From a virus (lineage: Duplodnaviria; Heunggongvirae; Uroviricota; Caudoviricetes): a stretch of DNA of 64,000 nt. A program made the position numbers and the translations under genes. Below the pieces are notes generated by a model that was not told where the DNA came from, made no database searches, and saw only the letters and a program-made list of their open reading frames with translations. The stretch lies in the IMG/VR virus record IMGVR_UViG_3300028298_000002. One strand, 5' to 3'. Below, one piece after another: positions 3,895 to 63,613 of the stretch (position 1 is its first letter; every line of letters starts with the position of its first letter).

Positions 3895-4473
3895 TTAAAG
3901 TATGCACCAATCGTTTGACAACATATCTGTTTGTGAAGCTAACCAGCCGTTCACAATGCTTCCATCAGCTGCTTTCATACATAGGTAGGCTGTGAATTCT
4001 ACATTCAATGATTCAACAACAAGCTTCCCGTATTCGTCTGGTGAATTTTTTTTCTCGAACCATTTTTTTACAGAATCAGGGAGGGATTTTATTTTTGAAA
4101 TTTGTTCATAGTGGATGCTATCTTTTGGACGCAGAAACACAAACATTCCTTTACCATTCCACCCTTCACGAGCAATTAAATTTCCCATCTTAACAGCTTC
4201 TAAAGCTGAACCAAAGGGTAATCCTTTTGTCATTGGTCTTGTTGGTGTCATTAGTTGGTATTCTCCCGCCAATTCCAAATTGTCTTCGAAATATTTTTTC
4301 GCTACATACCACTTATCATCGTGATTCTTAGGATTTCTTGCAATATACCCACCTTCCAATGTTGGTAGTGCTTTGTCAGGTTCTGATACACTGATTCCAG
4401 CCATATCTTCACCTAAAACATAAGGTCGCATTTCTGATAACCCTTTTCTTTTGTACTGTTTAAATTCGCTCAT
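3895..4473 (-). CDS. DUF2829-like domain protein (Tad2-family-like candidate)
   Basis: Central segment FGSALEAVKMGNLIAREGWNGKGMFVFL matches my memory of the DUF2829 signature (ALxxLKxGKKVAR-GWNGK). CTAACTAACTA motif directly upstream of the ATG. Confidence 0.45.
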   Translation of the reverse strand: MSEFKQYKRKGLSEMRPYVLGEDMAGISVSEPDKALPTLEGGYIARNPKNHDDKWYVAKKYFEDNLELAGEYQLMTPTRPMTKGLPFGSALEAVKMGNLIAREGWNGKGMFVFLRPKDSIHYEQISKIKSLPDSVKKWFEKKNSPDEYGKLVVESLNVEFTAYLCMKAADGSIVNGWLASQTDMLSNDWCIL

Positions 4474-4620
4474 AGTTAGTTAGTTTTGTTTGTTATTTTA
4501 AATTATAAATTTCATTGATGCACATTCTTACTTCGTCAATCGTAAGACCATATCTTTCGGCTAATGGTTCAAAGCCTGGCAAACAATAGTTATTCGCCTT
4601 TGCTTTTCTTAAATATTCTT

Positions 4621-14972: not shown

Positions 14973-14986
14973 GCCTTAATAATTAA

Positions 14987-15000
14987 TAGTTAGTTAGTTA
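14987..15000 (-). promoter_or_regulatory. CTAACTAACTA-type motif upstream of 14670..14972 (15-nt spacer)
   Basis: Plus strand reads tagttagttagtta. Confidence 0.4.
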
Positions 15001-15058
15001 TAAGGGCAATGATAACAAAATAATCAACAAATCAAAATAAATTCAACTTTATTTTTTT

Positions 15059-17621: not shown

Positions 17622-17627
17622 TTTTAG

Positions 17628-17867
17628 TTAGTTAGGTTTATTTAGGCGGAATTGTTCACGTTCCTTATCTTCTTTATCAATTAAATCTCTGTACGCTTTG
17701 TCCCACTTCTGCCATCTTTTTAGGGCTTTCAGAAATGCTGGACTATTTTCAATAACTGCACCTTCTTCTTCGCTTTTCCCTTGCATCTGTTCAGTTATCT
17801 TATCAAATGCTTTCCAAGAAATATAATAGTTATGGGCTAGTCTTATGTATTCCTTGCTTCTTGCCAC
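17628..17867 (-). CDS. hypothetical protein (79 aa)
   Basis: ORF. Confidence 0.45.
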   Translation of the reverse strand: MARSKEYIRLAHNYYISWKAFDKITEQMQGKSEEEGAVIENSPAFLKALKRWQKWDKAYRDLIDKEDKEREQFRLNKPN

Positions 17868-18759: not shown

Positions 18760-19044
18760 TTATTTTAGTTTTTCAAGTGCAATTAATCGGTCAATTTCAG
18801 CAGCAATAAGAGCTCCAGCAACTACTAGTCGCTTGATGTATGATTTGTTAAGGAGTTTTTCTTTTTTGAAGAAGTTCCAATTTTCTGGAAATTCGGAATG
18901 GTCGTTTGTAAGCATAGCGATTGCTACCTTTTTCAATTCTTCATCTTGATTTTTCAGCACATCGTGTTGAACCTGATGATTGTGCTTATGAATTTGTTCA
19001 TTGCGTTCTTCTTGAATTAATTCAAGGCCTGTTTTTGTACTCAT
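18760..19044 (-). CDS. hypothetical protein (94 aa)
   Basis: ORF. CTAACTAACTA motif at plus 19050-19060. Confidence 0.45.
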   Translation of the reverse strand: MSTKTGLELIQEERNEQIHKHNHQVQHDVLKNQDEELKKVAIAMLTNDHSEFPENWNFFKKEKLLNKSYIKRLVVAGALIAAEIDRLIALEKLK

Positions 19045-19087
19045 TGTTCTAGTTAGTTAGGTTTTGTTTGTACGATACTGGTTCGTG

Positions 19088-19342
19088 TTAGTGTGTTAAT
19101 CCATTAGTTATTGAAAAGTGCGACATACAGCCGATTGTTCTATTTATGGAAGGGGTTATGTTGTTACCAAATACCCTCCACATTGGTTTCCCTTCATTCA
19201 ATGGTAGCGAAATTACATCACCACAGCCACAAGGACATTTTAAATCAGCCCTTGCTTCGTTTCTACAAACGTAAACAACACCTTCTTCTAAAGAATTTGG
19301 TGGCGATTCTACATCTGTAAAAATGAAATGTTTACTTAGCAT
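19088..19342 (-). CDS. CPCGCG zinc-ribbon small protein
   Basis: LKCPCGCGDVISLPL...W....ITPSI....C.SHFSI. CTAACTAACTA motif 1 nt upstream (plus 19344-19354). Confidence 0.5.
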   Translation of the reverse strand: MLSKHFIFTDVESPPNSLEEGVVYVCRNEARADLKCPCGCGDVISLPLNEGKPMWRVFGNNITPSINRTIGCMSHFSITNGLTH

Positions 19343-19357
19343 CTAGTTAGTTAGGAT

Positions 19358-20440
19358 TTAATATTTTACAAGGTTATTTTTAATGATTGGATTCCCCTCT
19401 AAATTCACATCGTATCCGTATCGGAAAACCATTTGGGCGTTGGACCACCCTCCAAGTCTGGCAATGTTTGAATCGGATGCACCTTGCTTCAAAAGGTTAG
19501 AAACAAAGTATCGTCTCATGCTGTGTGGTGTTATTGCAACAGATTTGAATTCAGTAGCATTTCTCCATCTTAACAGCTTGGTGTAAATGTATTGGGTAGT
19601 AACGGGCTTAATGCCTTTGGTTTTGGCACTGCGTTTTGAATTATTAAATATCAGGTAATTGTATTTTCTGGTAGGGGTAGCAGGAACATAATCATCTTCT
19701 CCAACTTTACCTTTTGCTGGGGTGCCTGGATGATAAGGTAAAATTCCTTCAGTAGCCCAATCGGGCATCGGGATTCTTTTGTTTGTTCCTTGTTTTTCTT
19801 GGTAGATGTTGATCTCTTTATTCAGCCAGTCTATGTCTGAAGTTTTGATCTTAGCGATTTCTGACCTACGGCATCCAAAAGCCATAAAGAAGAAAATCCA
19901 TTTGTCGTTAATATCACCAGCATCTACGACTGTTTTAATTGCGTTGTAAACATCGTCATTGATACGCGTTTGTTTTTTGAAGGCGTTGGTGTCGCCAGTA
20001 GAAATCCAATCGCTTGAAAAGGAAGCCCGAATATCAAGGTTGTAATCGGGATGGGTGAACTTAAAGAAGTCGAAAAACTTCTTTACACTTTGCTGTGCTA
20101 GTGCTTTTGAGTTCTGGGATAGTTCAGTGGATCCTAATGCTTTTTCATAACAGATAACAAGATTTGTCAGCACCAATGTTTTGGTAACATTGTTTATTGG
20201 AAATTGGAGCTTGTTACACCATACCAGAAACTGCTTAACATTTCGTAAATAGGTGTTTACGGTATGGGCGCTAGTAATCTTCTTTGATATGGCCATAAAG
20301 TTCTGAAAAGCCTTTAATAATTGTTCCACATCATTATAACCAGTTAGGTGTTCTTTAGATACGGAATTCATATCTAAATCAATGCTAGGTAGGTTATCGA
20401 GGTTTATTTTATTTTCGTTATTCTGTAATTGGTCGCTCAT
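19358..20440 (-). CDS. int: tyrosine site-specific recombinase / phage integrase
   Basis: C-terminal catalytic signature HSMRRYFVS...LGGWSNAQMVFRYGY (H-x-x-R...Y). N-terminal SAM-like core-binding region. Confidence 0.85.
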   Translation of the reverse strand: MSDQLQNNENKINLDNLPSIDLDMNSVSKEHLTGYNDVEQLLKAFQNFMAISKKITSAHTVNTYLRNVKQFLVWCNKLQFPINNVTKTLVLTNLVICYEKALGSTELSQNSKALAQQSVKKFFDFFKFTHPDYNLDIRASFSSDWISTGDTNAFKKQTRINDDVYNAIKTVVDAGDINDKWIFFFMAFGCRRSEIAKIKTSDIDWLNKEINIYQEKQGTNKRIPMPDWATEGILPYHPGTPAKGKVGEDDYVPATPTRKYNYLIFNNSKRSAKTKGIKPVTTQYIYTKLLRWRNATEFKSVAITPHSMRRYFVSNLLKQGASDSNIARLGGWSNAQMVFRYGYDVNLEGNPIIKNNLVKY

Positions 20441-23153: not shown

Positions 23154-23351
23154 TTATTTTTTACCTTTTTTTGCAAATATCGTTATTAATCCCATTGAAG
23201 CGAACAATAAAAAAAACGAAAGAAGAAATGTTCGTACTGACCACCAATTAAATTCGTTTCCAAAGACCAATTCTATCACCATCCATATTCCAGTAATAAA
23301 GATTGACATGTATGATATGAATATCATTGCTATTGCAAATGTTTTGTTCAT
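23154..23351 (-). CDS. small membrane protein
   Basis: Two TM helices. Confidence 0.4.
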   Translation of the reverse strand: MNKTFAIAMIFISYMSIFITGIWMVIELVFGNEFNWWSVRTFLLSFFLLFASMGLITIFAKKGKK

Positions 23352-24952
23352 AATACCATATAGCTAAAGAGGTGGGATATTACTTCAATCGTCCACCCAT
23401 TTCCTAAACACTGGTAAACCCTAGTTTCTGATATGATGTACTTTCCGTCTTTGAAGAAATAATCGTCTTTTACGGTCTGTAAACGGCAACATTCAATTGG
23501 TGTTAATCTGCGGATTCGGAAGTCGCTGGTGTATATCGACTTTCTCGAACTATCCAAATCTAGGGTTGGGCTAATGCCGTTAATATCGTAAACTCGATTC
23601 TGTTGATATGGTTGTCGTCCACTTTCTTTTGATGGATTTAATTGTCTAATCTCACGTACCAATATTCGTTCGTCAGCGCCTGTGCTGGTTAATGTTGGGG
23701 CTAACCCATCTTCATCGTAAACGCGGTTGGTCTTTTCGAATACGCTTTCCTTTTCAATGAATTCCATTACCTGTGCATCGAACTTGTCGGTAGTGATGGA
23801 TAGGATTTCTTTTAATTTCATCCAATATTCTGGACTAGGAATACTGAAACTTGCATCGGTTCTGAACCAATGTTCTATTTCGGTTTTCGGTATTCTAAGT
23901 TTTTCTGCAAGATTTCGGATGGTGATATTGCCTTTGTGTTCCTTCAGCAACGCTTGTAATCCCGGAATATCCACTTCGTGCTTTCTGACTGATACCATTT
24001 CTGGAATGTCGTGGGCAATAAGTCTAGGAATAGCATATAACCCCGTTTTAGCACCGCCACCGCCACCAAGTGCTGAAAGTGTCACACTTTTACCAGTGTC
24101 GGTATAAATTCGCCCAGCAACGCTATTATGCTCGTTATCGTAAATGTTTCCAATTTGGGTAAGTCCATCCTTTTTGCTGTCAGCGATGTATTGCTGATCA
24201 CGTCCACCACCTTTGAAATAACCCGCGTGAATAGTGTTGGATTTTTCGTTTTCGATAGAATCGTTGTTGTGTCTTTCAATTTTAGCAAGTGCTAAATCAC
24301 TAAGGAAATACTTTTCAGCAACATCTTTTTGAAGGATATCGCGAAGGAATATTTTTCTGTCCTTTGGCTGCGGGATGTAGCTTTCCATATCACCGAACAA
24401 TCCAGCTTCCGCCATTCCGATGTTGGTCCAGTACAATCTGCGTCTTGACTGAGCGCTCACTAGGGAACTATTGATTTCAATCGGGTTTACACCGATGGCT
24501 TTTGTAAGGATCTTTTCCCACTTTTCGCCCATCATCACGTTTTCCAAAAGGAAGTATCGTGGTTTTGTTTCCTTCAGTAATCGCATAAATTCCCAGAACA
24601 GATAACTTTGTCCTTCAAATTCGTACCCTTCGGACTTCAGCTGAAGATAATGTTCAAGCGTTAGGACTTCCTGTTCATCCTTCGTGGACATCCCTTTTCT
24701 TTTACCCGCGAAACTGAAGGATTGGCAGGGACTCCCTCCACAAAGCAAGTCGATTTGGGGCAAAGAATACCCATCTACATCGACAACGCTTCCCAATTGC
24801 CTAGTGTTTGGATAATTTGCCATCGTTGCCTGGATAGCATACTTGTCGATTTCGGAAGCAAAGTAGTTATCTACCTTGATTCCTAATCGGTCAAGTGCTT
24901 GTTGCCCACAAGAACAACCATCAAAAAGAGAAAGGACATTGAATTCTGGCAT
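23348..24952 (-). CDS. DNA (cytosine-5)-methyltransferase
   Basis: Motif I LFDGCSCG, motif IV GGSPCQSFSFAG, motif VI LLENV, C-terminal motif X region QCLGNGW. Confidence 0.9.
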   Translation of the reverse strand: MPEFNVLSLFDGCSCGQQALDRLGIKVDNYFASEIDKYAIQATMANYPNTRQLGSVVDVDGYSLPQIDLLCGGSPCQSFSFAGKRKGMSTKDEQEVLTLEHYLQLKSEGYEFEGQSYLFWEFMRLLKETKPRYFLLENVMMGEKWEKILTKAIGVNPIEINSSLVSAQSRRRLYWTNIGMAEAGLFGDMESYIPQPKDRKIFLRDILQKDVAEKYFLSDLALAKIERHNNDSIENEKSNTIHAGYFKGGGRDQQYIADSKKDGLTQIGNIYDNEHNSVAGRIYTDTGKSVTLSALGGGGGAKTGLYAIPRLIAHDIPEMVSVRKHEVDIPGLQALLKEHKGNITIRNLAEKLRIPKTEIEHWFRTDASFSIPSPEYWMKLKEILSITTDKFDAQVMEFIEKESVFEKTNRVYDEDGLAPTLTSTGADERILVREIRQLNPSKESGRQPYQQNRVYDINGISPTLDLDSSRKSIYTSDFRIRRLTPIECCRLQTVKDDYFFKDGKYIISETRVYQCLGNGWTIEVISHLFSYMVL

Positions 24953-25652: not shown

Positions 25653-25656
25653 TTTT

Positions 25657-26112
25657 TTATTTTTTAGCGTTTACAAAATCAATCAATGCTTGGATTCTTT
25701 CGCGTGTAACATCGTTATCACCAGAAGAAAATAGGCTTATGTACCCGGTCATAACATTCTTGGGCAAACGACCAGTTGTTAAATAATATTCCATTGTTCT
25801 GATATCAGATTTTTCTGTGTCCAATATTTCTCTTTGGATAATGCACCAGATAACCATAAAGAAAATATAATCATCATTGGTTTCAAGCTTTCGTAGCTTG
25901 TCCCTTGAAATAACAATCATTCCAGACGGGTTTTCGACTAGGATATTTGTTGTTTTTTCTTCTCCATCAACAGTGATTCTGTCCACATACTTGATGTGAT
26001 ACTTTTTATCACCTGGCGAAACGTAGTCGCCTGGACCAATAATGTTCCAGTTTTCTGAAAAGGTTTCTGCGAAGGCCAATAGTTCTTGGTCTGGTTCGAA
26101 TGTGGTTTCCAT
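25657..26112 (-). CDS. hypothetical protein, tandem paralog B (start at internal ATG 26112)
   Basis: The longest ORF runs to 26178 but overlaps the upstream gene by 65 nt. The ATG at 26112 (METTFEPDQELL) aligns with paralog A and lies 1 nt after the upstream stop. Confidence 0.55.
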   Translation of the reverse strand: METTFEPDQELLAFAETFSENWNIIGPGDYVSPGDKKYHIKYVDRITVDGEEKTTNILVENPSGMIVISRDKLRKLETNDDYIFFMVIWCIIQREILDTEKSDIRTMEYYLTTGRLPKNVMTGYISLFSSGDNDVTRERIQALIDFVNAKK

Positions 26113-26113
26113 T

Positions 26114-26965
26114 TTATAAATCTTTATGAATGCAACAATGTTTATACTTCTTTCCGCTTCCGCAATGACAGACATCATTTCGTCTTCGCTTTGGATCCGG
26201 TACTTTTTTTACGACTGGTGGTTTTGGTTTTGGTTCTTCTTTTGGTTTTGGTAGAACACCATGAATGATAAAATCACCTGTCTTTTTGCTGATTTGGTAC
26301 ACGCAGTTTGAATCCGTTTTTTGAAATAGAAATTCATCTGTGGACATTGAATCGTAGGCCCCTTCACAAATAACGTGTCCAGTTAATAGATTGATATATT
26401 TACGATTCACCGAACAAACAACTCCGTGTAGATATGGTGAATCGTCTGCCTGGAAAACAATTTCACCTAATTTATTAATTACAGCTTTTTTACTCCAAAT
26501 TCCGAAAAAACCAACCACAGCAAATCCAAATTCATTGAAGTTTTCATTCATTCCATAGGGTTTGAAGATTGCTTCAGTAAGCTTATGTTCTTCGTTGTAT
26601 AAAGCATATCCAAATTCGGAAGCTATTCCTGATTTGGTTATGATACTCACTTCAGCTTTTTTTCCAACAAGGAACATCCCGCCTTTGTAATACCTAAAAT
26701 CAGTACACTCAAATAGGAATTTGCCTTCTTTAGAATAAATGGTTTTTGTATCATTCAGAAAACAAGAAAAGTATCGACCGCCAACTTGTATGAAATCGTA
26801 TTTATGGGGGATATTTAATCTTTCGATTCCCTCAAAACTGTTGATAGTGGTGATGCCTTCTTCTTCCCTCTGTTTTTGTTTTTGACGGGCATCCATTCCA
26901 GCAATTAGTTGCGAAAAGAAATCTCCGCCACCACCTAACATTCTTAAATATTCAGAATACCCCAT
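26114..26965 (-). CDS. SEC-C motif (SecA C-terminal-type zinc-binding) domain protein
   Basis: C-terminus CHCGSGKKYKHCC. Confidence 0.6.
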   Translation of the reverse strand: MGYSEYLRMLGGGGDFFSQLIAGMDARQKQKQREEEGITTINSFEGIERLNIPHKYDFIQVGGRYFSCFLNDTKTIYSKEGKFLFECTDFRYYKGGMFLVGKKAEVSIITKSGIASEFGYALYNEEHKLTEAIFKPYGMNENFNEFGFAVVGFFGIWSKKAVINKLGEIVFQADDSPYLHGVVCSVNRKYINLLTGHVICEGAYDSMSTDEFLFQKTDSNCVYQISKKTGDFIIHGVLPKPKEEPKPKPPVVKKVPDPKRRRNDVCHCGSGKKYKHCCIHKDL

Positions 26966-27922: not shown

Positions 27923-28321
27923 TTAGTAACAGTTAAAATCACTTGTTGATAATTGGTATGGAAGTGTGGACGATTTCCACAAGGAATGATTCCACATTTC
28001 CGATTTGGCATTGTAATCTTCAACCCATCGGTTAAGGTTGGTTTTGATGGTATTAATTCGCTGTGCCTTACTGAATTGGTCGAACATTTTATCGGTGTCT
28101 GGCAATTCTTTCATATTGCACAAATCGGTGTTCAGCTTTTTGCAAGTATTATAGGTGTCCTGAAATTCTTCGTATCGGATGATAGCGGTATTCGCAACAT
28201 CACTAGATCGGTTTAAGAACCAACTGATTCCAGCAACAATAAATACCAGTACAACGAACCAGATTAAAAGTTTTTTTACCTTTTTTTCTGCATATTCATA
28301 TTCTTCATTTCCTGTGTTCAT
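27923..28321 (-). CDS. membrane-anchored protein (single N-terminal TM helix), LemA-like topology
   Basis: KKLLIWFVVLVFIVAGISWFL, followed by a soluble domain. Confidence 0.45.
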   Translation of the reverse strand: MNTGNEEYEYAEKKVKKLLIWFVVLVFIVAGISWFLNRSSDVANTAIIRYEEFQDTYNTCKKLNTDLCNMKELPDTDKMFDQFSKAQRINTIKTNLNRWVEDYNAKSEMWNHSLWKSSTLPYQLSTSDFNCY

Positions 28322-28344: not shown

Positions 28345-29184
28345 TTATCTTCCAGTTGGCAATGTAAGGTTTGTACTATTCTTTGTGTCCATCACGATAA
28401 GAGTATTCTTAGAAGCACTTCCAATTTTTTCTAAAACTTCCAATCGTCTTGATTCAAGGTATTGTGGATTTTTTCTTATTGCTTCGCCAAGCATGTTGGC
28501 AGCTTCTACCTGGTTTTTAGCAGCAACTAGTTTATTTTTGCTGTCAAGGATGGTTGGATCTTCTTTTACGTTCGAAAGCTGTGCATTTAAAATCTCAAAT
28601 GGAGCTTTTGACTGCTTGATGACATTTATTACCATTAACGATATTTCAGCGTTAATTTCGCTATAATGGGCATAAACGCTATCAACATTCTGATACTTAG
28701 CAAATATTCCACGAACATTACCGCGAATGGTCATTTTTGCAAATTGGTTGTAAACGGATTCGATTTTAATTATTGATACACGCGAATCAGAGGTCGGTGT
28801 CGGAGAAATCATTGCATAAATACCATCTCTTAATTTTTTATCTTGTGGGATAGCTACTTGGGCGTAGATATCCACAGCCACTGGCGCTCCATCTTTTGTT
28901 CTTACACGATGATCGCCAGGCTTGGAAGAATCGCCACCTTCAGCATCAAAACTTTCTTTAATCGTGGTAGTTGTAACTTCCAATAATACAAGCGAAGTAG
29001 ATGTTCCATTTCCATTTTCATCACCCAAATCTACTTGTCCAGATTCAAGGATTGCATCAGCAAATCCAGTAGGGGTTAATTCTTTTCCAACAAATCCTGA
29101 TGGGATTGTTTTTACTACATTTCCACAGCTGGAAAAGGTTAGTGCCGAAGCGATAAGCATTACTGCTAAAATTGTTTTTTTCAT
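28345..29184 (-). CDS. lipoprotein with SPFH/band-7 (stomatin-prohibitin-like) domain
   Basis: Lipobox LTFSSC. Central and C-terminal segments resemble the SPFH core followed by an Ala/Glu-rich helix (KNKLVAAKNQVEAANMLGEA). Confidence 0.5.
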   Translation of the reverse strand: MKKTILAVMLIASALTFSSCGNVVKTIPSGFVGKELTPTGFADAILESGQVDLGDENGNGTSTSLVLLEVTTTTIKESFDAEGGDSSKPGDHRVRTKDGAPVAVDIYAQVAIPQDKKLRDGIYAMISPTPTSDSRVSIIKIESVYNQFAKMTIRGNVRGIFAKYQNVDSVYAHYSEINAEISLMVINVIKQSKAPFEILNAQLSNVKEDPTILDSKNKLVAAKNQVEAANMLGEAIRKNPQYLESRRLEVLEKIGSASKNTLIVMDTKNSTNLTLPTGR

Positions 29185-29190
29185 TTGTTC

Positions 29191-29201
29191 TAGTTAGTTA
29201 G
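29191..29201 (-). promoter_or_regulatory. CTAACTAACTA motif 6 nt upstream of ATG of 28345..29184
   Basis: Plus strand reads tagttagttag. Confidence 0.5.
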
Positions 29202-30975: not shown

Positions 30976-31211
30976 TACGGATTCAGTTGTTTATCAATGA
31001 AATCAATTAAGTCATTAATCGTTTTAATGCTTTCAGCATCTTCATCTGGGATAGATACTTTGAATTCGCTTTCAAAATCCATAATGGATTCAAGAACATC
31101 TAAGGAATCCATTCCAGTGTCTTCGATTTTTGTGTCTTTATCTGTTGTTACAACATCGTACTTGTTTTTTAGGATTTTTAATATTCCTACTTCGATTTCG
31201 TTTTTGTTCAT
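30975..31211 (-). CDS. acyl carrier protein-like (phosphopantetheine-attachment) protein, 78 aa
   Basis: EDTGMDSLDVLESIMDFESEFKVSIPDE matches the ACP DSL serine motif and helix II. Start ATG 31211-31209 overlaps the TGA stop of 31208..32749 (ATGA). The longer ORF to 31316 only adds a basic extension overlapping that gene. Confidence 0.7.
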   Translation of the reverse strand: MNKNEIEVGILKILKNKYDVVTTDKDTKIEDTGMDSLDVLESIMDFESEFKVSIPDEDAESIKTINDLIDFIDKQLNP

Positions 31212-32749
31212 TGGTTGAGTTTTTTTCTGATTTCTGTTAGTGTTGTTTGATTTTTTAGTACTCCGTTTTCGTAGATTACTTGAAGCAATCCTTGACTTTC
31301 TTCTTCGAAAGAACATTCTTCCTTACAAACGATTTTTCCTTCGTCTTCAGTAATCATTATCAATCCTTTTAATGATTTCTTAGTTCCATCATCCGTGATA
31401 GGTTCTTTGTAAATATTGTAGCCAGTTCCGTTAGCTTCAAACCAAGCTCCTTTTGCTGCAAACCCAAGTGTATCACGGGTATTCATCTGATAAGTGTAGC
31501 TTCCCACGCCTAATACGATATTGGTAGCTGCAAAGCCTTTTTGTTCTAATCGGTGGTAGATTTCAACTTGGCGATCAAGTGTGATGCTATCGCCATAAAT
31601 TGCACCGATATGGGAATCTAAAACTTTATATCCTTGTTCATTAATCGTTCCACCGAAGATATCCCAAAGTAATTCAATAACGCCTTTAGTTTCAGATTCA
31701 GTTACATTTTCTTTAAGTGTTTTGTATTTAGGAGGATTGCTAACTAAATTAGTAGGTTTTTCACCATTATATTTAAGAAAGGTATCTTTTCTACCACCTA
31801 AACCACAAATAATATCCACTGGATTTCCGCTGTCGGGACGGATAACCAATTTGCCATCACGCGACATAATTAATTCTTTGTTAGCAGGGAGGTATTCTGT
31901 AATTAACTTCCATAAGTCAAACGTATCTGATACAATTGAAAGAATACCCGTTGGAAACTCTTTCAGCCAATCAGCAATCATTTGCTGTTCCCCAACAGTA
32001 AATATTTTGGTGGTTGATACCGAATGTTCGGAAGCATTAACAGAATTTATGCATACTTCGTTTTCTGGTTCGTTGTAGAAATATCTTGCACCTGGAATAA
32101 CAATTAGTGCATCAGATCCACGATGGCTACTAGCATGTCCTAATCCACTTGATAACATATCCCAAGGGGATAATCCTCTAGCACTAAAATCGTGGCATAA
32201 GTAATCAATCAACCAGGCGTTTTGCGGATCCGTTTTCATAACCCATTCAACAGCATTTCTTCTGTATTGCAAAGCGATTGTTGCGGATGTCGATGGCTTC
32301 CAAGCTAAACTTGAAACAATGGTTTCCAAATACAAGGTCAGCCAAGCAAAGCCATCTACCGTATTGATAAATGTCATATGAGGGACGTTTGGCTGTGTTT
32401 CTATCCCTTCAGGTAAACTTTTAATGCGAATAGGTAAATAACCCAGCTTATGCAATTCAGCGAAGTGGTCCGCATTATATTCTTGCATTAGGTACATTCC
32501 CATATCCTTACCAAATTTCATTGCATCTTCCAAAGGAAGGCTGAAGAAGTTTTCAGCAAATTCGTCATGTAGCCAACGAACAACAATTTGTTGTCCAAAT
32601 GATACTATTTTTGAAACGCCTGTTGGAGCGTATTTGATGCTACGCGGAATCCACGTTCCATATAATTTTGTTGTACCTGGTGCCAACATTCTTTTGTGTG
32701 ATGTCTTATACCCATCGGTATAAAATAATGTGTTTGGTTTAAAGCTCAT
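31208..32749 (-). CDS. nicotinamide phosphoribosyltransferase family protein (NadV/NAMPT homolog; possibly Namat-type)
   Basis: 513 aa. N-terminus FYTDGYKTSHKRMLAPGTTKLYGTWIPRS (NAMPT-type TDSYKxxH). Length and overall pattern match phage NadV. Confidence 0.8.
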   Translation of the reverse strand: MSFKPNTLFYTDGYKTSHKRMLAPGTTKLYGTWIPRSIKYAPTGVSKIVSFGQQIVVRWLHDEFAENFFSLPLEDAMKFGKDMGMYLMQEYNADHFAELHKLGYLPIRIKSLPEGIETQPNVPHMTFINTVDGFAWLTLYLETIVSSLAWKPSTSATIALQYRRNAVEWVMKTDPQNAWLIDYLCHDFSARGLSPWDMLSSGLGHASSHRGSDALIVIPGARYFYNEPENEVCINSVNASEHSVSTTKIFTVGEQQMIADWLKEFPTGILSIVSDTFDLWKLITEYLPANKELIMSRDGKLVIRPDSGNPVDIICGLGGRKDTFLKYNGEKPTNLVSNPPKYKTLKENVTESETKGVIELLWDIFGGTINEQGYKVLDSHIGAIYGDSITLDRQVEIYHRLEQKGFAATNIVLGVGSYTYQMNTRDTLGFAAKGAWFEANGTGYNIYKEPITDDGTKKSLKGLIMITEDEGKIVCKEECSFEEESQGLLQVIYENGVLKNQTTLTEIRKKLNQ

Positions 32750-38219: not shown

Positions 38220-38258
38220 TTAATTCCGACACTACTTTATTCGTAATCGGATGGTTAG

Positions 38259-38335
38259 TTTGCGATGAAGGTTTCGAACCCCCGACCTTCTTCTTGTATT
38301 GGATGAAGACGCTCTACCAGCTGAGCTAATCGCAA
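38259..38335 (-). tRNA. tRNA-like element with 11-nt anticodon loop (possible unusual tRNA or pseudo-tRNA)
   Basis: Minus strand reads TTGCGAT-TA-GCTC-AGCTGGTA-GAGC-G-TCTTC-ATCCAATACAA-GAAGA-AGGTC-GGGGG-TTCGAAA-CCTTC-ATCGCAA-A. Perfect 7-bp acceptor stem, canonical D-arm and T-arm (TTCGAAA loop). The anticodon stem is 5 bp, but its loop is 11 nt, not 7. Confidence 0.45.
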
Positions 38336-39022: not shown

Positions 39023-39315
39023 AGTAAAACAATATATTTATAACTTCCAAATAAAAAGCAATAAATATTATAATCTCAATTAGCGTATTTACACAAAATA
39101 GCCTAAATCGTTGATTCTATTGAGTTTTCAAAACTTTCAAAAAGCGATAATATATATTATAAAGACAATTATAGAATATATAACTTATTTTATTTACGAT
39201 TATATTTGGAAATGTCAAAACAATATATTATTATTGCGGTCTATAATTGTTCAAAGGGTTGGTGTCGTGTATTTACGGGTGCAGATGCCAACCTGAACAA
39301 CTAAACTAACCACCT
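39023..39315. promoter_or_regulatory. strand-switch intergenic region (divergent promoter region; possible origin)
   Basis: About 290 bp, very AT-rich, no ORF. Separates the minus-strand block from the plus-strand block. Confidence 0.4.
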
Positions 39316-42900: not shown

Positions 42901-43028
42901 AAATAAACTAAAAAAAATGAAAATAAAAACACTACTTGAAAAGTTAATCTTTTTGTCCAGATGGCTACTAATCCCTGCGGTGATGGTGGCGGTGGAGAAT
43001 AAAATTACTAACTAATAAACTAAAAAAC

Positions 43029-45800: not shown

Positions 45801-45823
45801 TATCAATCCTAACTAAAAACCAA

Positions 45824-47264: not shown

Positions 47265-47288
47265 CTAACTAACTAACTCTAACTAACT
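47265..47288 (+). promoter_or_regulatory. two tandem copies of the CTAACTAACTA motif abutting ATG of 47289..48419
   Basis: ctaactaactaactctaactaactATG. Confidence 0.5.
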
Positions 47289-48419
47289 ATGCAACAATAC
47301 CTAAAATTAATCAACACCATCCTAGCAAGTGGGACAGTGAAACCAGCAGCAAGAGAAAATATGCCATCAACAGTTAGCTTATTCGGATATCAGTTCCGAC
47401 ATAATTTAGCTGACGGCTTTCCATTACTTACAACAAAAAAAATGTACTGGAAAGGCGTTATCGTTGAATTACTTTGGTTTTTACGTGGCGATATCAATAT
47501 CCATTATTTAGTATCAAATGGAGTGAACATCTGGAACGAAGATGCTTTCCAGTATTATCTAAAAAAATGTAAACAAGTGGGAATCGTTGAAACACTTTCT
47601 TTTGAAGCATTTATTGAAGTGATCAAAAAAGGCGATTTAGAAACGGTTTCCAGAAATTTTAATGATAGCAACTACAAATATGGCGATTGCGGTCATCAAT
47701 ACGGAAAAGTATGGAGAGACTTTGGGACAGATGAAACTGGGATGCAGTTCGGAAAAGGAGTTGACCAAATCAAAAAACTAATTGAAGGATTAAGAAAAAA
47801 TCCGGAAAGCAGAAGACATATTGTTACCGCTTGGGATCCGACACACGACCAGGATTTAGCTTTAACCTGGTGTCATGCCCTATTTCAGCTGAATTGTCGC
47901 CCAATGACTACACTCGACCGAGCTCATTATGCTGTGGATAATGCTATTATGCACAGAAATGAATTGATGAATGATTCTGAAGAAACAGGATTAACTCTTA
48001 TAGAACATTTAGACCATTTTAACGTCCCTAAATACCACCTTGACTGCCAACTATATCAACGCAGTGCAGATGTTTTTCTTGGCGTTCCCTTTAATATCGC
48101 TTCGTATGCACTACTTACTGAAATTCTTGCAAAGATGTGCAATATGGTACCAGGCACGTTCATCCATAGCTTTGGAGATGTCCACTGCTATTCCAACCAC
48201 CTAGAAGCGATAGAAGAACAAGTTTCCCGTACTCCAACAGCTTTGCCGAAGCTGAAACTAAAAGGCTGGGTTGATGGAGCTGACAAAGATATTTGGCAGA
48301 CCTACGACCTTGATACTTTATTGTCTCTGCTAGTAAGTAATTTAGATTTAATTGAATTACAAAACTACAATCCGCAACCACCCATCAAAGCTGAACTATC
48401 AACTGGTTTAAAAAAATAG
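47289..48419 (+). CDS. thymidylate synthase family protein (divergent ThyA; dUMP-specific, possibly a dUMP hydroxymethylase)
   Basis: Conserved ThyA blocks FGYQFRHNL, GFPLLTTKK, ELLWFLRGD, SRRHIVTAW, WCHALFQ (catalytic Cys), QLYQRSADVFLGVPFNIASYALL, GDVHCYSNH. ThyA's DRTGTGT is replaced by ARENMPST. Two large insertions and a C-terminal extension are present. Confidence 0.8.
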   Translation: MQQYLKLINTILASGTVKPAARENMPSTVSLFGYQFRHNLADGFPLLTTKKMYWKGVIVELLWFLRGDINIHYLVSNGVNIWNEDAFQYYLKKCKQVGIVETLSFEAFIEVIKKGDLETVSRNFNDSNYKYGDCGHQYGKVWRDFGTDETGMQFGKGVDQIKKLIEGLRKNPESRRHIVTAWDPTHDQDLALTWCHALFQLNCRPMTTLDRAHYAVDNAIMHRNELMNDSEETGLTLIEHLDHFNVPKYHLDCQLYQRSADVFLGVPFNIASYALLTEILAKMCNMVPGTFIHSFGDVHCYSNHLEAIEEQVSRTPTALPKLKLKGWVDGADKDIWQTYDLDTLLSLLVSNLDLIELQNYNPQPPIKAELSTGLKK

Positions 48420-49061: not shown

Positions 49062-49391
49062 ATGAAAGACTATATGTTCATAAATTACAAAGCGCAATTC
49101 GTTAAGATTTTTTTTAATGAAATAAAATACATTCAAGCAGATGGGGATTATTGTAAGATTTTTACCAATGAAAAAATGTATCACATCCATTCTACTTTAA
49201 TCTATTTAGAAACTAAGTTGCCTACTGAAATGTTTTATAGATGCCACCGAAGTTTCTGTGTGAATGTTGATAGAATTACAATTATTGAAGGGTTTACTAT
49301 TTATATTGATAAGGTAAGTGTTCCAATCTCAGAACTTAATAAAAAAGAATTATTGAATAAAATAAATTTAGTAATGTTTCAAAAATCGTAG
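49062..49391 (+). CDS. LytTR-family DNA-binding domain protein (standalone)
   Basis: FVKIFFNEIKYIQADGDYCKIFTNEKMYHIHSTLIYLETKLPTEMFYRCHRSFCVNVDRI matches the LytTR consensus. Confidence 0.7.
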   Translation: MKDYMFINYKAQFVKIFFNEIKYIQADGDYCKIFTNEKMYHIHSTLIYLETKLPTEMFYRCHRSFCVNVDRITIIEGFTIYIDKVSVPISELNKKELLNKINLVMFQKS

Positions 49392-53584: not shown

Positions 53585-54141
53585 AAAAAGTATTATCAGA
53601 ATCTGTTGAAAAAAGATTTCAAGCGGAAGCAACCATCAATTCACTAAGAAAAAAAATCTGCGGAATAGCTGAATATGAAACTTTAAAAAAGTATAAATCT
53701 GTCAATTTATTGCTTAAAGGAATGGAATTTGAATTAATTGGCGTTAAAGCGTCCTTTGATTTTTACGATATTGACATACCAAAAAAGGTTAATATACAAC
53801 TCGCTTACCTTTTTATTTCGAAAAGAAAAAGAGTTAAAGAAATTAAAGATTTTTATGCGAATAACAATCGCTTCCCTTTTACCAATAGTAAGAATCCATT
53901 TTTTGAAGAACGTCTGTATAGTGTAGATTTGGATAAGGTTTTAAATAAAGAAATTAACCTTAAAATTGATGGTAGCAAAAAATCACACGAAGAAAAGCTG
54001 GCAAAGGATAAAAAAATATTCGAAGAAAAAATAGCAAAAGAAGAAAAGCTATCCAAAGAAAAAAGAGAAAAAGATTTACAACAAAAAAAATCATTTGATT
54101 CTTTGGCAAAAACGATAAATAATTATAAAAATAATGCTTAA
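53575..54141 (+). CDS. hypothetical Lys/Glu-rich protein (188 aa)
   Basis: ORF. Confidence 0.5.
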   Translation: MDIKKVLSESVEKRFQAEATINSLRKKICGIAEYETLKKYKSVNLLLKGMEFELIGVKASFDFYDIDIPKKVNIQLAYLFISKRKRVKEIKDFYANNNRFPFTNSKNPFFEERLYSVDLDKVLNKEINLKIDGSKKSHEEKLAKDKKIFEEKIAKEEKLSKEKREKDLQQKKSFDSLAKTINNYKNNA

Positions 54142-55675
54142 AGTAGCCACAGTTTGCACTGGAATCGGTTCACCAGAATACGCCCTTAGAGAATTAGGAA
54201 TCCCGCACCAAATAGTTTTTGGCTGCGACATCGATCGCTTTGCTAGAGAAACTTACCTAGCCAACTTCAAGCCCGATATGATGTTTGAAGATATGACAAA
54301 GCCCGACATCCTAGACCACTATGCCGATTTGTTTCTTGGAGGAATTCCTTGTCAAAGTTTTTCACTAGCCGGTAAACGTCTTGGCGAATTAGATCCGCGT
54401 GGACTTTTATTTTACAATTTTTATGAATACGTCAAAGTTCAAAAACCGAAATATTTTATCATCGAAAATGTGAAAGGCTTACTTTCCGATCAAGACGGGA
54501 AAACATTTCAATCCTGGCTGGATTTACTTGGGCAATCAGTAAACAATCAGCACAATATGTTTACGCACGATGACAGCTTGATGTATAACCTACATTGGAA
54601 CGTCCTAAACACAAAGGATTTCGGACTACCTCAAAATAGAGAACGTGTTTTTATAATCGGCATCAGAAATGATCTTCCAAATAACTTTCGCTTCCCAGTC
54701 GGCTTTCCGCTTACCATTCGCCTAAAAGATATCCTAGAAACCAACGTAGATGAAAAATATTATCTAAGCGACAAAATGGTAGAATATATGAACAATCGTT
54801 CTGCCAATTTCAACAATGGAAAAATAAATTACAAGTATGGCGATGACATCGCTTCCACTATCACACGAAGCAGCAGCAGTTTAGATATCAGTGATAATAT
54901 TATTGTTGAAGAAAAGCAGAACCAAATGGATAGGCTACTTGAGCGCACTGGCGTTGATATTTCGGGAGTAACCGAACCAACTGCACTTGACGTTTACAAT
55001 AAAGTGCTTAAAACAGATGGAATATCACCTACACTTACCGAACCGCATCATAATAATTCACTAAGGCTTGTTGAACCCTTCTGCGTAGCGATGCGTGGAA
55101 GAAATCCAGAAAAGCCAAACGACAGAACATCTGGACTTAAAACAGAACAACGTCTTGAACCGAATTCACAAGGCATCACCAACACCATCACTTCCGTTCA
55201 AAAGGATAACTTAATTGTTGAACCAGCAATACTTACTCCTAAGAGGACCGAGTTTGGTAAAGAAACAAGGAAAAAATATGAAGCTGGGGAACTAAAACTG
55301 AACAGAAGCGAAATAACCAAACTTGAACCGAGAACAGATGGCATTTCTAACACCATTACGTCCGTTCAGAAAGATAATCTTTTGTTTGAACCTTATATCG
55401 TCCAAAAGCATCAAGACTGGCGACAAAAGGGCGATGATTTAAGGGAATTTCACGAACTAGCACCTACACTTCGCAGTAATATGGGCGACAACCATCCGCT
55501 TGTCGTTAGCCATAGAATCCGTAAGCTCACACCACGCGAATGTGGTAGATTGCAAGGATTTGCTGACGATTTTAAACAGCCCGTTTCTGACACCCAAGCG
55601 TTCAAGCAATTTGGAAATACCATAAGTACGCCAGTGATTAAAGCGATTTTAAAAAACTTATTAACCCCCAAGTAG
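54134..55675 (+). CDS. DNA (cytosine-5)-methyltransferase
   Basis: Motif I VCTGIGS, motif IV GGIPCQSFSLAGKRLG, motif VI IIENVKGL, C-terminal QFGNTISTPV. Confidence 0.9.
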   Translation: MLKVATVCTGIGSPEYALRELGIPHQIVFGCDIDRFARETYLANFKPDMMFEDMTKPDILDHYADLFLGGIPCQSFSLAGKRLGELDPRGLLFYNFYEYVKVQKPKYFIIENVKGLLSDQDGKTFQSWLDLLGQSVNNQHNMFTHDDSLMYNLHWNVLNTKDFGLPQNRERVFIIGIRNDLPNNFRFPVGFPLTIRLKDILETNVDEKYYLSDKMVEYMNNRSANFNNGKINYKYGDDIASTITRSSSSLDISDNIIVEEKQNQMDRLLERTGVDISGVTEPTALDVYNKVLKTDGISPTLTEPHHNNSLRLVEPFCVAMRGRNPEKPNDRTSGLKTEQRLEPNSQGITNTITSVQKDNLIVEPAILTPKRTEFGKETRKKYEAGELKLNRSEITKLEPRTDGISNTITSVQKDNLLFEPYIVQKHQDWRQKGDDLREFHELAPTLRSNMGDNHPLVVSHRIRKLTPRECGRLQGFADDFKQPVSDTQAFKQFGNTISTPVIKAILKNLLTPK

Positions 55676-55879: not shown

Positions 55880-58411
55880 ATGATTAAACTAAGACCATAT
55901 CAGCAAAAATTTGTGGATGAAATTCGAACGAAACTTTTCAAAAAAGAAAGGGTAATCGCATGTGCTGCTACGGGGTGTCATGCGGTAGGCACTAAAATAT
56001 TAATGTACAATGGATCTTTAAAAAATGTTGAAGATATATGTGTAGGAGATGCATTAATGGGCAACGATAGCACGAAAAGAACTGTGGATAGATTAATAAG
56101 AGGGAGGGAGTTGATGTATCAGATAACTCCAGTTAAGGGTGATTCATTTATTGTTAATGGAAATCATATTCTTTCTCTTAAAAGAACTACTAGCGATAAA
56201 AATTCAAGAGGCCGCGAACCAATAATGAATTTATCGGTTAATGATTACATTAAAACAAATAAAAATTTCAAGCATTTGTATAAATTATACAGAACCGGCA
56301 TTGATTTTAATTCATATAGCGAAAAATTAAGAACACACCCCTACTTTGTTGGATTATGGCTTGGAGATGGCACTATGGCAAATACCGCACTTACAAATCC
56401 AGATAAAGAAGTTCAGAGTTGGATGCTAAATGAATTTCAGGAGGACTGTAAAATTAATCACGAAGGGGTTATTGTTAAGGTTGTAAAGAACAAAGATAGG
56501 TGCGATACAATATTTTCGAATGTCCCAATTGGCGGAGGGAGGGGGAATCACAACAATTCATTGTTAAATTTTACTAGAACGCTTATTAGTAATAGTGAAA
56601 AAAGAATCCCTAAAGACTATTTAATAAATAGCAGAGAAGTAAGGTTGCAAGTATTAGCAGGGTTACTAGACACAGATGGGTATAGAGGACATGGAGGATA
56701 TGAAATAACAACTAAATATAATGGACTTTCGGATGATATATTATTCCTTGCTAGATCACTTGGATTAGCTGCTTATGTTAGTAAAAAAATAGGGAAAATA
56801 AAAAAACTTAATTTTATAGGAGAATATTTTCGAATTTCTATATCGGGCGATTGTTCAATAATCCCTTGTAAAATAGAAAGAAAAAAAGCGAGTGTTAGGC
56901 AACAAATTAAAAGTGTTCTTACAACTGGCTTTTCAATACAAGAATTACCAGAAGATAATTTTTACGGTTTTGAATTAGATGGAAATAATCTTTATTGTAT
57001 GGGGGATTTTACAATAACACATAATAGTGGTAAAACCAAATGCTTCATCGCAATCTCAAATATGGCTATTTCAAAAGGGAAGACAGTTTTGATAATGTCC
57101 GAAACTGCAAAAATATTTTCCCAAATATCTAAAGAAATAGAAAATTGTGTTAATATCGAAAGCAAAGTTAAAACGCTTGACGTAAAGCCAACTCACATCT
57201 ACGTTGCGATGTCCCAAACTCTAGCAAAGAGACCAAATATTATTTCTAAATTTTTAGAATTAGGCAAAGATCTTATAATCATAGCCGATGAATGCCATAT
57301 TGGGACCTTTACTAAATTAATAATGCAATTTCGTAATAGTTCATATATAATAGGCTTTTCAGCTACTCCAGATTTCAGATTTGCGAAGCACCTTCCACTT
57401 TTATACCACGATATTATTATTGGCGCTCAGCCGCAAGAACTAGTAGAAATGGGGTTTCTTGCACCATATTATCACTACGAAAGAAAGGTTGTTGATTTGA
57501 AAGGCTTAAAAAAAAGCAGCACTGGCGACTTTACAGAACAATCGCAGGAACAGGCTTTTGAAAAGGCTATTGTTTACGATGGAATATTTGAAGACATCGT
57601 AAAGTTTAAATTCAGGAAGTGTATGATCTTCACCGCGTCCATTCAACATGCAGAAGATGTTGGACAAAAAATGAGAAGTCGTGGATACAAAGTCGCTGTA
57701 TGCCATTCAAAGAATCCTGAATCTGATTTTGAATTATTTCAGTTTTTAAATCTCAATAGCGGAATTGATATTTGTATCAGTGTAGCATCGCTCACAAAAG
57801 GCTTTGACGCGCCTTCGGTGGACAATATAATTTTACTAAGAAGTACACTTTCGCTACCGCTATACCTTCAGATGATTGGTCGTGGATCCAGGATAAATGA
57901 ATTTACTGGGAAGACTAAATTCACAGTAATTGATTATGGTGGAAATGCTACAAGACATGGACTTTGGAACTTTGAAAGAGACTGGAGTTCTATGTGGTCT
58001 GGTAAACAAAAAACGAAAGGCGAAGGTATAGCTCCAGTGAAGACGTGTCCCAACAAATTACCTCCATTGAATCAACAATGTGGATATATGATGCATACAA
58101 ATGTTATGATTTGTCCTGATTGTGGATTTGTATTTGAAAAGAAAAAAGTTGATGCGAAAGAAACTGAGCTTGTTGAATTAAATACACGATACAATGCATT
58201 ACGGGGTAGAAAAATTTCTACGCTTACACCTAGCGAATTAGTGGACTATGCAAGAAGTACAAACAAGAAAAAATACGCTGAACGCATTGCAAAATCAAAA
58301 GGGATGGATTACCTACGTGAATATGGATTTAAAATGGGATATAAGGAAAGCTGGGTATATGCAACGCATACAGATGAAGTAGTAGAATTTTATGATGTAG
58401 AAATTAAATAA
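55880..58411 (+). CDS. SF2 DEAD/DEAH-box DNA helicase interrupted by a LAGLIDADG intein in the Walker A loop
   Basis: Extein: LRPYQQKFV...ACAATG | SGKTKCFIA restores GxGKT. Then IIADECHIG (DECH), GFSATPDF (motif III), QMIGRGSR (motif VI), and C-terminal Cys clusters. Confidence 0.85.
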   Translation: MIKLRPYQQKFVDEIRTKLFKKERVIACAATGCHAVGTKILMYNGSLKNVEDICVGDALMGNDSTKRTVDRLIRGRELMYQITPVKGDSFIVNGNHILSLKRTTSDKNSRGREPIMNLSVNDYIKTNKNFKHLYKLYRTGIDFNSYSEKLRTHPYFVGLWLGDGTMANTALTNPDKEVQSWMLNEFQEDCKINHEGVIVKVVKNKDRCDTIFSNVPIGGGRGNHNNSLLNFTRTLISNSEKRIPKDYLINSREVRLQVLAGLLDTDGYRGHGGYEITTKYNGLSDDILFLARSLGLAAYVSKKIGKIKKLNFIGEYFRISISGDCSIIPCKIERKKASVRQQIKSVLTTGFSIQELPEDNFYGFELDGNNLYCMGDFTITHNSGKTKCFIAISNMAISKGKTVLIMSETAKIFSQISKEIENCVNIESKVKTLDVKPTHIYVAMSQTLAKRPNIISKFLELGKDLIIIADECHIGTFTKLIMQFRNSSYIIGFSATPDFRFAKHLPLLYHDIIIGAQPQELVEMGFLAPYYHYERKVVDLKGLKKSSTGDFTEQSQEQAFEKAIVYDGIFEDIVKFKFRKCMIFTASIQHAEDVGQKMRSRGYKVAVCHSKNPESDFELFQFLNLNSGIDICISVASLTKGFDAPSVDNIILLRSTLSLPLYLQMIGRGSRINEFTGKTKFTVIDYGGNATRHGLWNFERDWSSMWSGKQKTKGEGIAPVKTCPNKLPPLNQQCGYMMHTNVMICPDCGFVFEKKKVDAKETELVELNTRYNALRGRKISTLTPSELVDYARSTNKKKYAERIAKSKGMDYLREYGFKMGYKESWVYATHTDEVVEFYDVEIK
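55976..57025 (+). mobile_element. intein (350 aa) with LAGLIDADG homing endonuclease domain
   Basis: Begins CHAVGTKIL immediately after ACAATG. Ends ...FTITHN, followed by extein Ser. Two dodecapeptide motifs FVGLWLGDGTMAN and LAGLLDTDGYRGHGG. Confidence 0.8.
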
Positions 58412-63598: not shown

Positions 63599-63613
63599 CT
63601 AACTAACTAACTA
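63599..63613 (+). promoter_or_regulatory. CTAACTAACTAACTA motif 1 nt upstream of ATG 63615
   Basis: cctaactaactaactagATG. Confidence 0.5.

Follow-up and report, generated by a model that had tools for sequence, protein, structure and literature searches.

A (CTAA)n tract ahead of start codons in a large phage, possibly a Shine–Dalgarno-independent translation-initiation spacer

The window analyzed here, i.e., a stretch of 64,000 nucleotides (nt) from IMG/VR virus record IMGVR_UViG_3300028298_000002, carries a short repeated element, the tetranucleotide tract (CTAA)n, just ahead of the start codons of nine genes. We regard it as an even call that (CTAA)n is a structure-free, Shine–Dalgarno (SD)-independent spacer for translation initiation between cistrons, or a short 5′ leader, which would act in cis in the mRNA. 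From the sequence we infer that it enhances or insulates translation. The spacer reading is the best supported of those that we weighed, as it would explain the strand and position of the tract, its variable spacing and copy number, its use as the upstream stop codon, the exchange with ATGA overlaps or A-rich spacers and the recurrence in phages without SD sites.

Results

(CTAA)n abuts start codons on the coding strand

The word CTAACTAACTA matched the window exactly 11 times, whereas 0.01 matches were expected from 100 dinucleotide-preserving shuffles, none of which reached 11. It was also the top-ranked 10-mer by repetition across the window. The 11 matches fall into nine loci on the two strands (Table 1), with tandem copies at 47265/47279 and overlapping registers of one 15-nt tract at 63599/63603. 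All 11 copies lie on the coding strand, gene direction being minus up to about 39.1 kb and plus from 39.3 kb onward. No copy is more than 14 nt away from an ATG, all of these ATGs open plausible genes, and even where the spacer is long (144, 97, 86 or 43 nt) the element keeps to its ATG-proximal end. An earlier note on this DNA had described a conserved element abutting start codons and had named the count against shuffled controls and the position relative to starts as checks, and on both its description held. Its coordinates were right to within 1 nt (the site given as 4474–4484 is actually 4473–4483). At least ten marked genes, as it had put it, was slightly generous with exact copies at nine, and the degenerate copies listed before 45824, 39316, 27923 and 27339 are partial only, i.e., ACTAA or CTAACTA words.

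The tract is 11–15 nt long in the window, contains no G and usually follows an A-rich run that ends in C. As can be read directly from the sequence, AUG, GUG and UUG are all impossible inside a tract without G, and the lack of G agrees with the earlier statement that the element is without SD complementarity. Stop codons in all three frames had also been claimed; this is true when the 12th base is A or G, as (CTAA)n itself has TAA in two frames and the third is closed by TAA or TAG with this next base. In the reverse complement, TAGTTAGTTAG, every frame holds a TAG. Independent variants of the motif with one mismatch were essentially absent, the few one-mismatch matches being mostly shifted registers of exact copies.

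As had been noted before, the marked genes are functionally diverse. They encode a Tad2-like protein, a weak match to the Acb2/Tad1 hairpin family, a DUF6527 protein, an SPFH lipoprotein, thymidylate synthase and several proteins of no known function, and are mostly of accessory or anti-defence types.

Table 1. Exact and degenerate (CTAA)n sites in the window. Gap, distance between 11-mer end and ATG; at −1, motif and ATG share one A, the last of the motif.
Element	Position	Strand	11-mer at	Gap (nt)	Context
(CTAA)2.75	4473..4483	−	4473	−1	Abuts ATG of Tad2-like gene 3895–4473; last A shared with ATG
CTAACTAACTAA	6928..6939	−	6929	4	12-mer 3 nt (aat) ahead of ATG of gene 6154–6924; 3′ end of 144-nt spacer
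TAACTAACTAACTA	14987..15000	−	14987	14	Ahead of ATG of gene 14670–14972; within conserved 86-nt intergenic region
CTAACTAACTAA	17624..17635	−	17625	3	12-mer 2 nt ahead of ATG of gene 17283–17621 (weak Acb2/Tad1 hairpin match)
CTAACTAACTA	19050..19060	−	19050	5	Ahead of ATG of gene 18760–19044
CTAACTAACTA	19344..19354	−	19344	1	Ahead of ATG of DUF6527 gene 19088–19342; directly past stop of tyrosine-recombinase gene (19358–20440)
CTAACTAACTA	29191..29201	−	29191	6	Ahead of ATG of SPFH/Band-7 lipoprotein gene 28345–29184
Tandem CTAACTAACTAACT + CTAACTAACTA	47265..47289	+	47265/47279	−1 (47279)	Abuts ATG of thymidylate synthase gene 47289–48419; 3′ end of 97-nt spacer
(CTAA)3.75	63599..63613	+	63599/63603	1 (63603)	Ahead of ATG 63615 (155-aa gene in longer contig)
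Degenerate CTAACTA(aaaaccaa)	45809..45815	+			Ahead of ATG 45824
Degenerate attaCTAACTAAtaaactaaaaaac	43004..43028	+			Ahead of ATG 43029
Degenerate ctaAACTAACcacct	39303..39315	+			Ahead of ATG 39316
Degenerate ACTAA-rich spacer ttactaacctaaaaactaaaaaa	28322..28344	−			Ahead of ATG of gene 27923–28321

Signals of a probable Bacteroidota host

The window is part of a large phage, for which contigs of the same assemblies extend to about 81 kb. A conserved protein of 713 amino acids (aa) is 54% identical to its counterparts in the Cellulophaga baltica phages phi4:1 and phi17:2 and 67% identical to that of the uncultured phage LR756500. SD-like words were found upstream of 5% of the window genes, compared with 6.5% in phi4:1, and gene-upstream regions are A-rich. 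Canonical Bacteroidota −7 elements (TAnnTTTG) occur in intergenic regions at 2060, 5355, 39201 and 47024, all of them separate from the motif; the element at 47024, TACATTTG, lies 13 nt ahead of an ATG and would leave a very short leader. From the relatedness to Cellulophaga phages, the few SD words, the A-rich upstream regions and the TAnnTTTG elements, we conclude that the host is very probably a member of the Bacteroidota.

Ribosomes of Bacteroidota ignore SD sequences (PMC6847099, PMC13000457). Initiation in Flavobacterium johnsoniae depends instead on low structure, upstream adenines and AUG depletion near starts, and adenines at −3, −6, −12 and −13 are positive determinants (PMC6847099).

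The −7 element at 2060, TATCTTTG, follows a strong 13-pair hairpin (2147–2177, minus strand) that is flanked by an A-run and a T-run and could be a bidirectional terminator. It lies about 28 nt ahead of the ATG of gene 1607–2029, and the arrangement looks like a clear operon boundary.

Motif-bearing initiation regions are G-poor and unstructured

We compared the −30 to +30 regions of motif genes with those of genes that have a spacer of at least 10 nt without the motif and of genes with a spacer below 10 nt or an overlap. Mean minimum free energies were −1.7, −3.7 and −3.4 kcal/mol, respectively. The mean unpaired probability was 0.81 for motif genes, compared with 0.67 (p = 0.04) and 0.63 (p = 0.0009), and the G content was 2.7% compared with about 10% and 12%.

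The stop codon of an upstream open reading frame (ORF) is placed inside the motif at 6 of 26 sites in the clade described below and lies up to 12 nt before it at nine more. Among 97 sites from IMG/VR the corresponding numbers were 25 and 19. At 17624..17635, for example, the upstream ORF 17628–17786/17867 terminates at the second TAA of the motif.

Inspection of the aligned window sites gave no conserved upstream element beyond A-richness, and neither a hairpin nor a promoter was found at the motif sites of the window. No −7 element was present within about 80 nt upstream of any window site; the sites are hence presumably internal, between cistrons. The motif does not contain TTTG and thus is not a Bacteroidota sigma-A promoter (−33 TTTG / −7 TAnnTTTG). 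A scan of the window for sigma-70-type promoters and terminators yielded no more such sites than in shuffled sequence, and the sole match of an Rfam scan of the window was a tRNA.

The site at 14987..15000 stands in an 86-nt intergenic region (14973–15058, minus strand) with 84% mean column identity to two relatives, L130 and L133. TAACTAACTAACTA itself is invariant in both, and the stretch of 10–14 nt between motif and ATG diverges. The conserved part of the region ends in this motif. As a whole it looks like a regulatory region or promoter, but in its best −7-like element, TATTTTG, one T is missing relative to TAnnTTTG.

We also searched for phage factors that might act on the element. Among the 120 window proteins, Pfam (E ≤ 1e-4) gave no RNA polymerase, sigma factor, KH, S1, RegA-like or other RNA-binding domain; most of these proteins match no family, and the genome was seen over roughly 81 kb. 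A stand-alone LytTR DNA-binding domain protein of 109 aa is encoded at 49062–49391 (plus strand). A link with the motif was rejected, as a LytTR protein is also encoded by the relative L324, where the motif is missing, and both are absent from phi4:1.

The element is gained, lost and exchanged among close relatives

Contigs L130–L135, with 74–91% identity in a marker protein, carry the motif, always on the coding strand and ahead of an ATG, with n = 2.25–4.75. Together with the window, these loci provide 26 unique motif-to-gene junctions. The motif was absent from the whole phi4:1 genome, from a 42-kb part of LR756500 and from four IMG/VR relatives, whose 713-aa proteins are 57–69% identical (in the fourth, a partial match of 52%). 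It was also absent from 24 metagenome loci in which the marker protein (296 aa) is no more than 48% identical and from three contigs whose integrase-like protein is 50–56% identical. Since L130–L135 have the motif and more distant relatives are without it, the element appears to be young and restricted to a narrow clade of the phage group. The tract at 63599 is identical in three other assemblies (L316, L317 and L318), representing at least three different samples, and showed no length polymorphism.

Orthologous junctions were informative on the behavior of the element. After the tyrosine-recombinase gene (19358–20440) it is present in the window, L131 and L135, where three different, unrelated genes follow. 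In a comparison of L130 with L131 the downstream gene is the same and only L131 has the element, as a clean 12–13-nt indel that leaves stop codon and ATG unchanged. At the homologue of gene 17867–18757, the element is found in L133, L134 and L130 and is missing from the window and L131. The next gene after this homologue is reached via the element in L133 and L134, via an ATGA overlap in L130 and via a 22-nt A-rich spacer in L131. Because of this gain, loss and swapping at orthologous junctions, the element is a discrete and dispensable module that can be exchanged with two ordinary cistron joins, i.e., the ATGA overlap and the A-rich spacer.

Synteny breaks coincided with 10 of 13 motif junctions and with 46 of 68 other junctions (p = 0.74), the whole region being mosaic. 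Despite striking single cases, the motif was overall not supported as a marker of recombination hotspots.

The word recurs in unrelated phages that lack SD sites

IMG/VR was scanned for the exact 16-mer AACTAACTAACTATGA and for one composition-matched control word, AATCAATCAATCATGA. The 16-mer was found 104 times and the control 52 times; 76 copies of the former (73%), but only 19 of the latter, open an ORF of at least 40 codons. The 76 ORFs belong to 42 unrelated protein families, one of which is an out-of-frame artefact (a prophage family in which the word is coding). Among loci with AACTAACTAACTATGA as a gene start, SD sites are missing in 87% (median SD-like fraction 0.04), whereas the median SD-like fraction is 0.53 in loci at which it does not open a gene. 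The earlier note had considered a phage-specific element; this fits the narrow clade among the phage's own relatives, but the word recurs independently in many unrelated SD-less phages.

In 5 of 59 unique IMG/VR contexts a canonical TAHHTTTG ends 21–33 nt ahead of the ATG. In F. johnsoniae the TAnnTTTG element lies 4–5 nt upstream of the transcription start, and with this distance the tract would make up most of a 16–28-nt leader in the five contexts.

A broad IMG/VR scan for the motif followed by ATG was discarded, since the matches listed were mostly single chance occurrences and only multi-copy loci were informative. Such loci occur on unrelated contigs, which share no detectable protein with the window and hold three to seven copies each abutting ATGs. 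Three copies each were found in L472, L495, L481 and L499, and seven full copies within 11 kb in L183/L323, several of them ahead of consecutive small genes that include an anti-restriction gene and an HNH gene. The layout in this last region (L183 2650–6900, minus strand, equivalent to L323 7100–11000, plus strand) is itself repeated, with one or two hairpins without a T-run and then AAA(CTAA)nTG. The anti-restriction protein is phrog_7245 and the HNH protein an endonuclease; other genes of L183 often have (A)CTAAC(A)A a few nt ahead of the ATG.

Long (CTAA)n tracts of at least 16 nt are common microsatellites in many viruses, giant-virus bins included, and in bacterial genomes. About one-third of the long tracts in an unbiased sample precede an ORF start in sense and about 4% in antisense, in SD-less and SD-using loci alike. 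In bacterial genomes, (CTAA)3.75 followed by ATG gave 80 titled matches, 32 of them from Bacteroidota. By hand tally and without statistics, an ORF of at least 100 aa lies behind 11 of the 32 Bacteroidota matches and behind 6 of the 48 matches from other phyla. Very long tracts of up to 131 nt also stand beside ATGs in bacterial genomes (L359, L436, L447, L356 and others), e.g., 123 nt in Flavobacterium notoginsengisoli (L359) and 75 nt in a Bacteroidota metagenome-assembled genome (L356), and could be phase-variable loci.

Other features of the window

The tyrosine recombinase (Phage_integrase; 19358–20440, minus strand) is 83–100% conserved in close relatives and heads a hypervariable run of accessory genes. 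It is an odd gene for a phage that otherwise looks large and of lytic type. Genes related to anti-defence or NAD are dense in the window. They include the Tad2-like gene 3895–4473, a nicotinamide phosphoribosyltransferase gene (31208–32749, minus strand) and gene 17283–17621, whose weak match to the Acb2/Tad1 hairpin family scored 25.5 bits with the cut-off at 27. Phosphoribosyl-synthetase-like and NADAR domains were also detected on the minus arm and were not mapped to genes.

Several proteins appear to carry insertions. An 843-aa helicase (ResIII/Helicase_C; 55880–58411, plus strand) has Hom_end_hint and Hom_end domains and hence probably contains an intein with a homing endonuclease. The 376 aa of the thymidylate synthase (47289–48419, plus strand) cover only 265 Pfam model positions, which points to an insertion of about 100 aa. 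Each arm encodes a large C5 DNA methyltransferase (23348–24952, minus strand, 534 aa; 54134–55675, plus strand, 513 aa). Their PHROG alignments span about 510–530 residues for about 280 profile positions and suggest large internal insertions.

The only tRNA of the window is a tRNA-Ile with anticodon AAT (38258–38335, minus strand; ARAGORN, Rfam tRNA 47.5 bits). This anticodon is unusual for tRNA-Ile in bacteria, where GAT is the norm. In phi4:1, a tRNA-Ile likewise adjoins the homologue of the 713-aa protein. Finally, a 461-nt gap in the ATG-only gene call (25653–26113, minus strand) reads as coding and is probably part of ORF 25657–26178.

Discussion

A spacer of this kind could work through its composition. 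Folding is impossible in a G-free tract and no competing AUG, GUG or UUG occurs inside it; with TAA or TAG in every frame, any arriving ribosome would be released a few nt from the next AUG. This AUG would then lie in an open landing zone made of A, C and U only, suited to reinitiation or to fresh loading of 30S or 70S particles. The tract may thus be a combined junction that says terminate here and start here, or a short open leader where a promoter precedes it. It would function by composition and accessibility and not by base-pairing at a set distance, and variable spacing (−1 to 14 nt) and copy number (2.25–4.75 units) would be tolerated because the function is compositional. Slippage in TAA-rich junctions is the probable origin of the tract and of its changes in length, and copies probably travel with accessory-gene cassettes. 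Among the three options that the earlier note had left, translation initiation or reinitiation has the best support, from the G-free and unstructured sequence, the swaps with an ATGA overlap or A-rich spacer, the upstream stop within the motif in about one-quarter of the sites and the leader position in other phages.

A number of observations weigh against the spacer reading. It leaves the preference for CTAA over other G-free words unexplained, as well as the exactness of the copies and their abundance in one clade with none in its sisters. Exactness and clade restriction fit slippage with cassette copying, or a specific reader, and that one-mismatch variants are nearly absent is as compatible with recent copying or slippage as with selection. 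The element is also dispensable, in that sister phages have the same host-type signals and lack it. Low structure is in part a trivial outcome of a tract without G. The adenines known as determinants in F. johnsoniae (−3, −6, −12, −13) were not enriched in the motif-bearing initiation regions: motif genes had A at −6, −12 and −13 with frequencies of 0.33, 0.44 and 0.56, respectively, not above the other genes (0.53–0.73), and the 4-nt period of the tract is out of phase with these positions. Kozak-like phasing was accordingly not found at motif genes. The composition-matched control was a single word (AATCAATCAATCATGA). Long tracts stand just ahead of an ORF start in 17 of 55 SD-less and in 18 of 50 SD-using loci. 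Moreover, the CTAA word is not enriched upstream of Bacteroidota host genes (0.79 of expectation, permutations similar), and there is hence no sign that the host recognizes the CTAA sequence itself.

Part of these points would suit an element without a specific effect on expression, which we consider rather unlikely. Here (CTAA)n would be a mostly neutral by-product of slippage in TAA- or A-rich junctions that survives only between genes, given its stops in six frames, and has spread with cassettes, possibly as a microhomology linker. The copy number varies between 2.25 and 4.75 units among relatives, the copy at 47265–47289 is a tandem duplication, and copies are exact with almost no one-mismatch variants. 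The narrow and young distribution, with relatives of 50–69% identity lacking the element, its clean gain and loss at orthologous junctions and the three different genes behind the same integrase-motif junction would likewise be expected, and both viral and bacterial genomes commonly contain long (CTAA)n microsatellites, with a sense bias ahead of ATGs that is equal for SD-using and SD-less loci. However, sister phages of the same composition and junction style have no copies, so that slippage alone is not enough for nine loci in 64 kb. The tract also always takes the ATG end of long spacers, its association with synteny breaks was not significant (10/13 versus 46/68), and the exact word opens genes about four times more often than the composition-matched repeat, mostly in SD-less phages.

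Another reading is that (CUAA)n is a dedicated, sequence-specific substitute for the SD sequence in Bacteroidota phages, which seems unlikely. As a signal for ribosome recruitment or reinitiation, it would have ribosomal protein S1, a segment of rRNA or a phage factor as its reader. Early and anti-defence genes of the phage would then be translated with preference by SD-blind ribosomes, and such signals would have arisen several times in phage lineages that are not related.

Less likely still is an operator for a phage regulator of an early or accessory regulon, either a (CUAA)n-binding translational repressor or activator like T4 RegA or a DNA-binding protein such as the LytTR protein 49062–49391. 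An element that is exact over 11 nt, restricted to a lineage and placed at diverse accessory and anti-defence genes (Tad2-like, weak Acb2/Tad1-like, DUF6527, SPFH, ThyA) would suit such a regulon, as would the anti-restriction gene that is marked in L183, an unrelated contig. Operators that occlude start sites typically tolerate a variable distance to the AUG, and the window does encode a LytTR protein, a family that binds direct repeats. Yet the Pfam search of the window proteins yielded neither a sigma factor nor an RNA-binding domain such as RegA, KH or S1. A LytTR protein occurs without the motif in L324, and phi4:1 is devoid of both. Recurrence of the word in many unrelated phages that share no proteins with this one also speaks against a lineage-specific factor.

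We find it improbable that (CTAA)n is a promoter or start-site element, used by the host polymerase with a phage factor or by a phage polymerase, that gives leaderless or nearly leaderless mRNAs. T4 late promoters are a precedent for a short conserved word directly upstream of genes, the element sometimes ends long spacers or comes after hairpins (L183), and closely spaced copies recall phage early regions. However, the spacing to the ATG is continuous from −1 to 14 nt and the copy number varies, and at spacings of −1 to 2 the usual start site would land within coding sequence. No second conserved element was seen upstream, and the word is unlike the Bacteroidota TAnnTTTG, which occurs elsewhere in the window, yields short leaders there and precedes the word in other phages. 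At an orthologous junction an ATGA overlap takes the place of the motif, and no RNA polymerase or sigma gene was found among the window proteins. The promoter for leaderless transcripts that the earlier note had offered is consequently disfavored by the continuous spacing, the missing upstream element and the separate host-type −7 promoters. An endonucleolytic processing site that cuts polycistronic transcripts just ahead of the AUG is highly improbable: the tract is single-stranded, A/U-rich and between cistrons, and in L183 it follows hairpins in a way that recalls the T7 early region, but the window sites have no conserved flanking structure and we know of no nuclease specificity that matches CUAA repeats.

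In its presumed working, (CTAA)n as an initiation spacer is most like the SD-independent initiation regions of F. johnsoniae. Like initiation regions of Bacteroidia (PMC6847099, PMC13000457), it has no SD sequence, is A-rich, G-poor and unstructured, is free of competing AUGs and is found in SD-less phages, in several of them presumably within short leaders behind TAHHTTTG promoters. Unlike these regions, it is a fixed, repeated word of 11–19 nt and not a compositional bias, the phased adenines are not enriched, it adds stop codons in every frame, and it is limited to certain phage lineages and not enriched in host genes. T4-type PeSL cassettes (PMC2839356, PMC4122927) are also short, repeated intergenic expression signals in variable accessory regions of large phages, present or absent at orthologous junctions and followed by different genes behind the same junction in close relatives. 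They consist of a promoter and a stem-loop, whereas (CTAA)n has neither and is far shorter (11–19 nt); moreover, its association with synteny breaks is not significant and there is no evidence of mini-circles.

Engineered three-frame stop linkers or universal terminators, e.g., CTAACTAACTAA in primers and cassettes, similarly have TAA in all three frames within 12 nt; (CTAA)n, in contrast, is natural, recurrent, oriented and tied to the next start codon, and is not a terminator alone. A literature search for the word returned only unrelated papers, in which it apparently was part of a primer or construct sequence, and we found no description of the element in the searchable literature. Tetranucleotide contingency loci of Haemophilus and Neisseria, which undergo phase variation by slipped-strand mispairing, share the tandem unit beside or upstream of starts and the copy number that varies between relatives. 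However, about three units of (CTAA)n are too few for high-frequency slippage, the tract is outside the reading frame, and three further assemblies of this phage have the identical tract at 63599. Operators of T4 RegA are likewise sequence features at the start codons of diverse, probably early genes, but for (CTAA)n no cognate protein was identified among the window proteins, the word is common to unrelated phages, and it is exact whereas RegA sites are degenerate. An attC-like or tyrosine-recombinase site was rejected: the tract is a direct repeat, not palindromic, with no G to pair with C, and its copies are scattered over both arms, far from the recombinase gene 19358–20440. The element does not belong to the contingency repeats, the SD sites, the attC-like sites or the Bacteroidota promoters.

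How Bacteroidia choose start codons without SD pairing is still being worked out, and the choice is known mainly as weak compositional preferences. A natural element of 11–19 nt that stands at many unrelated starts and is swapped at orthologous junctions offers a compact test object for start-site selection on SD-blind ribosomes. If it is merely a spacer born by slippage, (CTAA)n would still be a handy annotation cue for gene starts in these phages. If the spacer reading is true, it would be a candidate for a portable translation-initiation or insulator part for the engineering of Bacteroidota and their phages.

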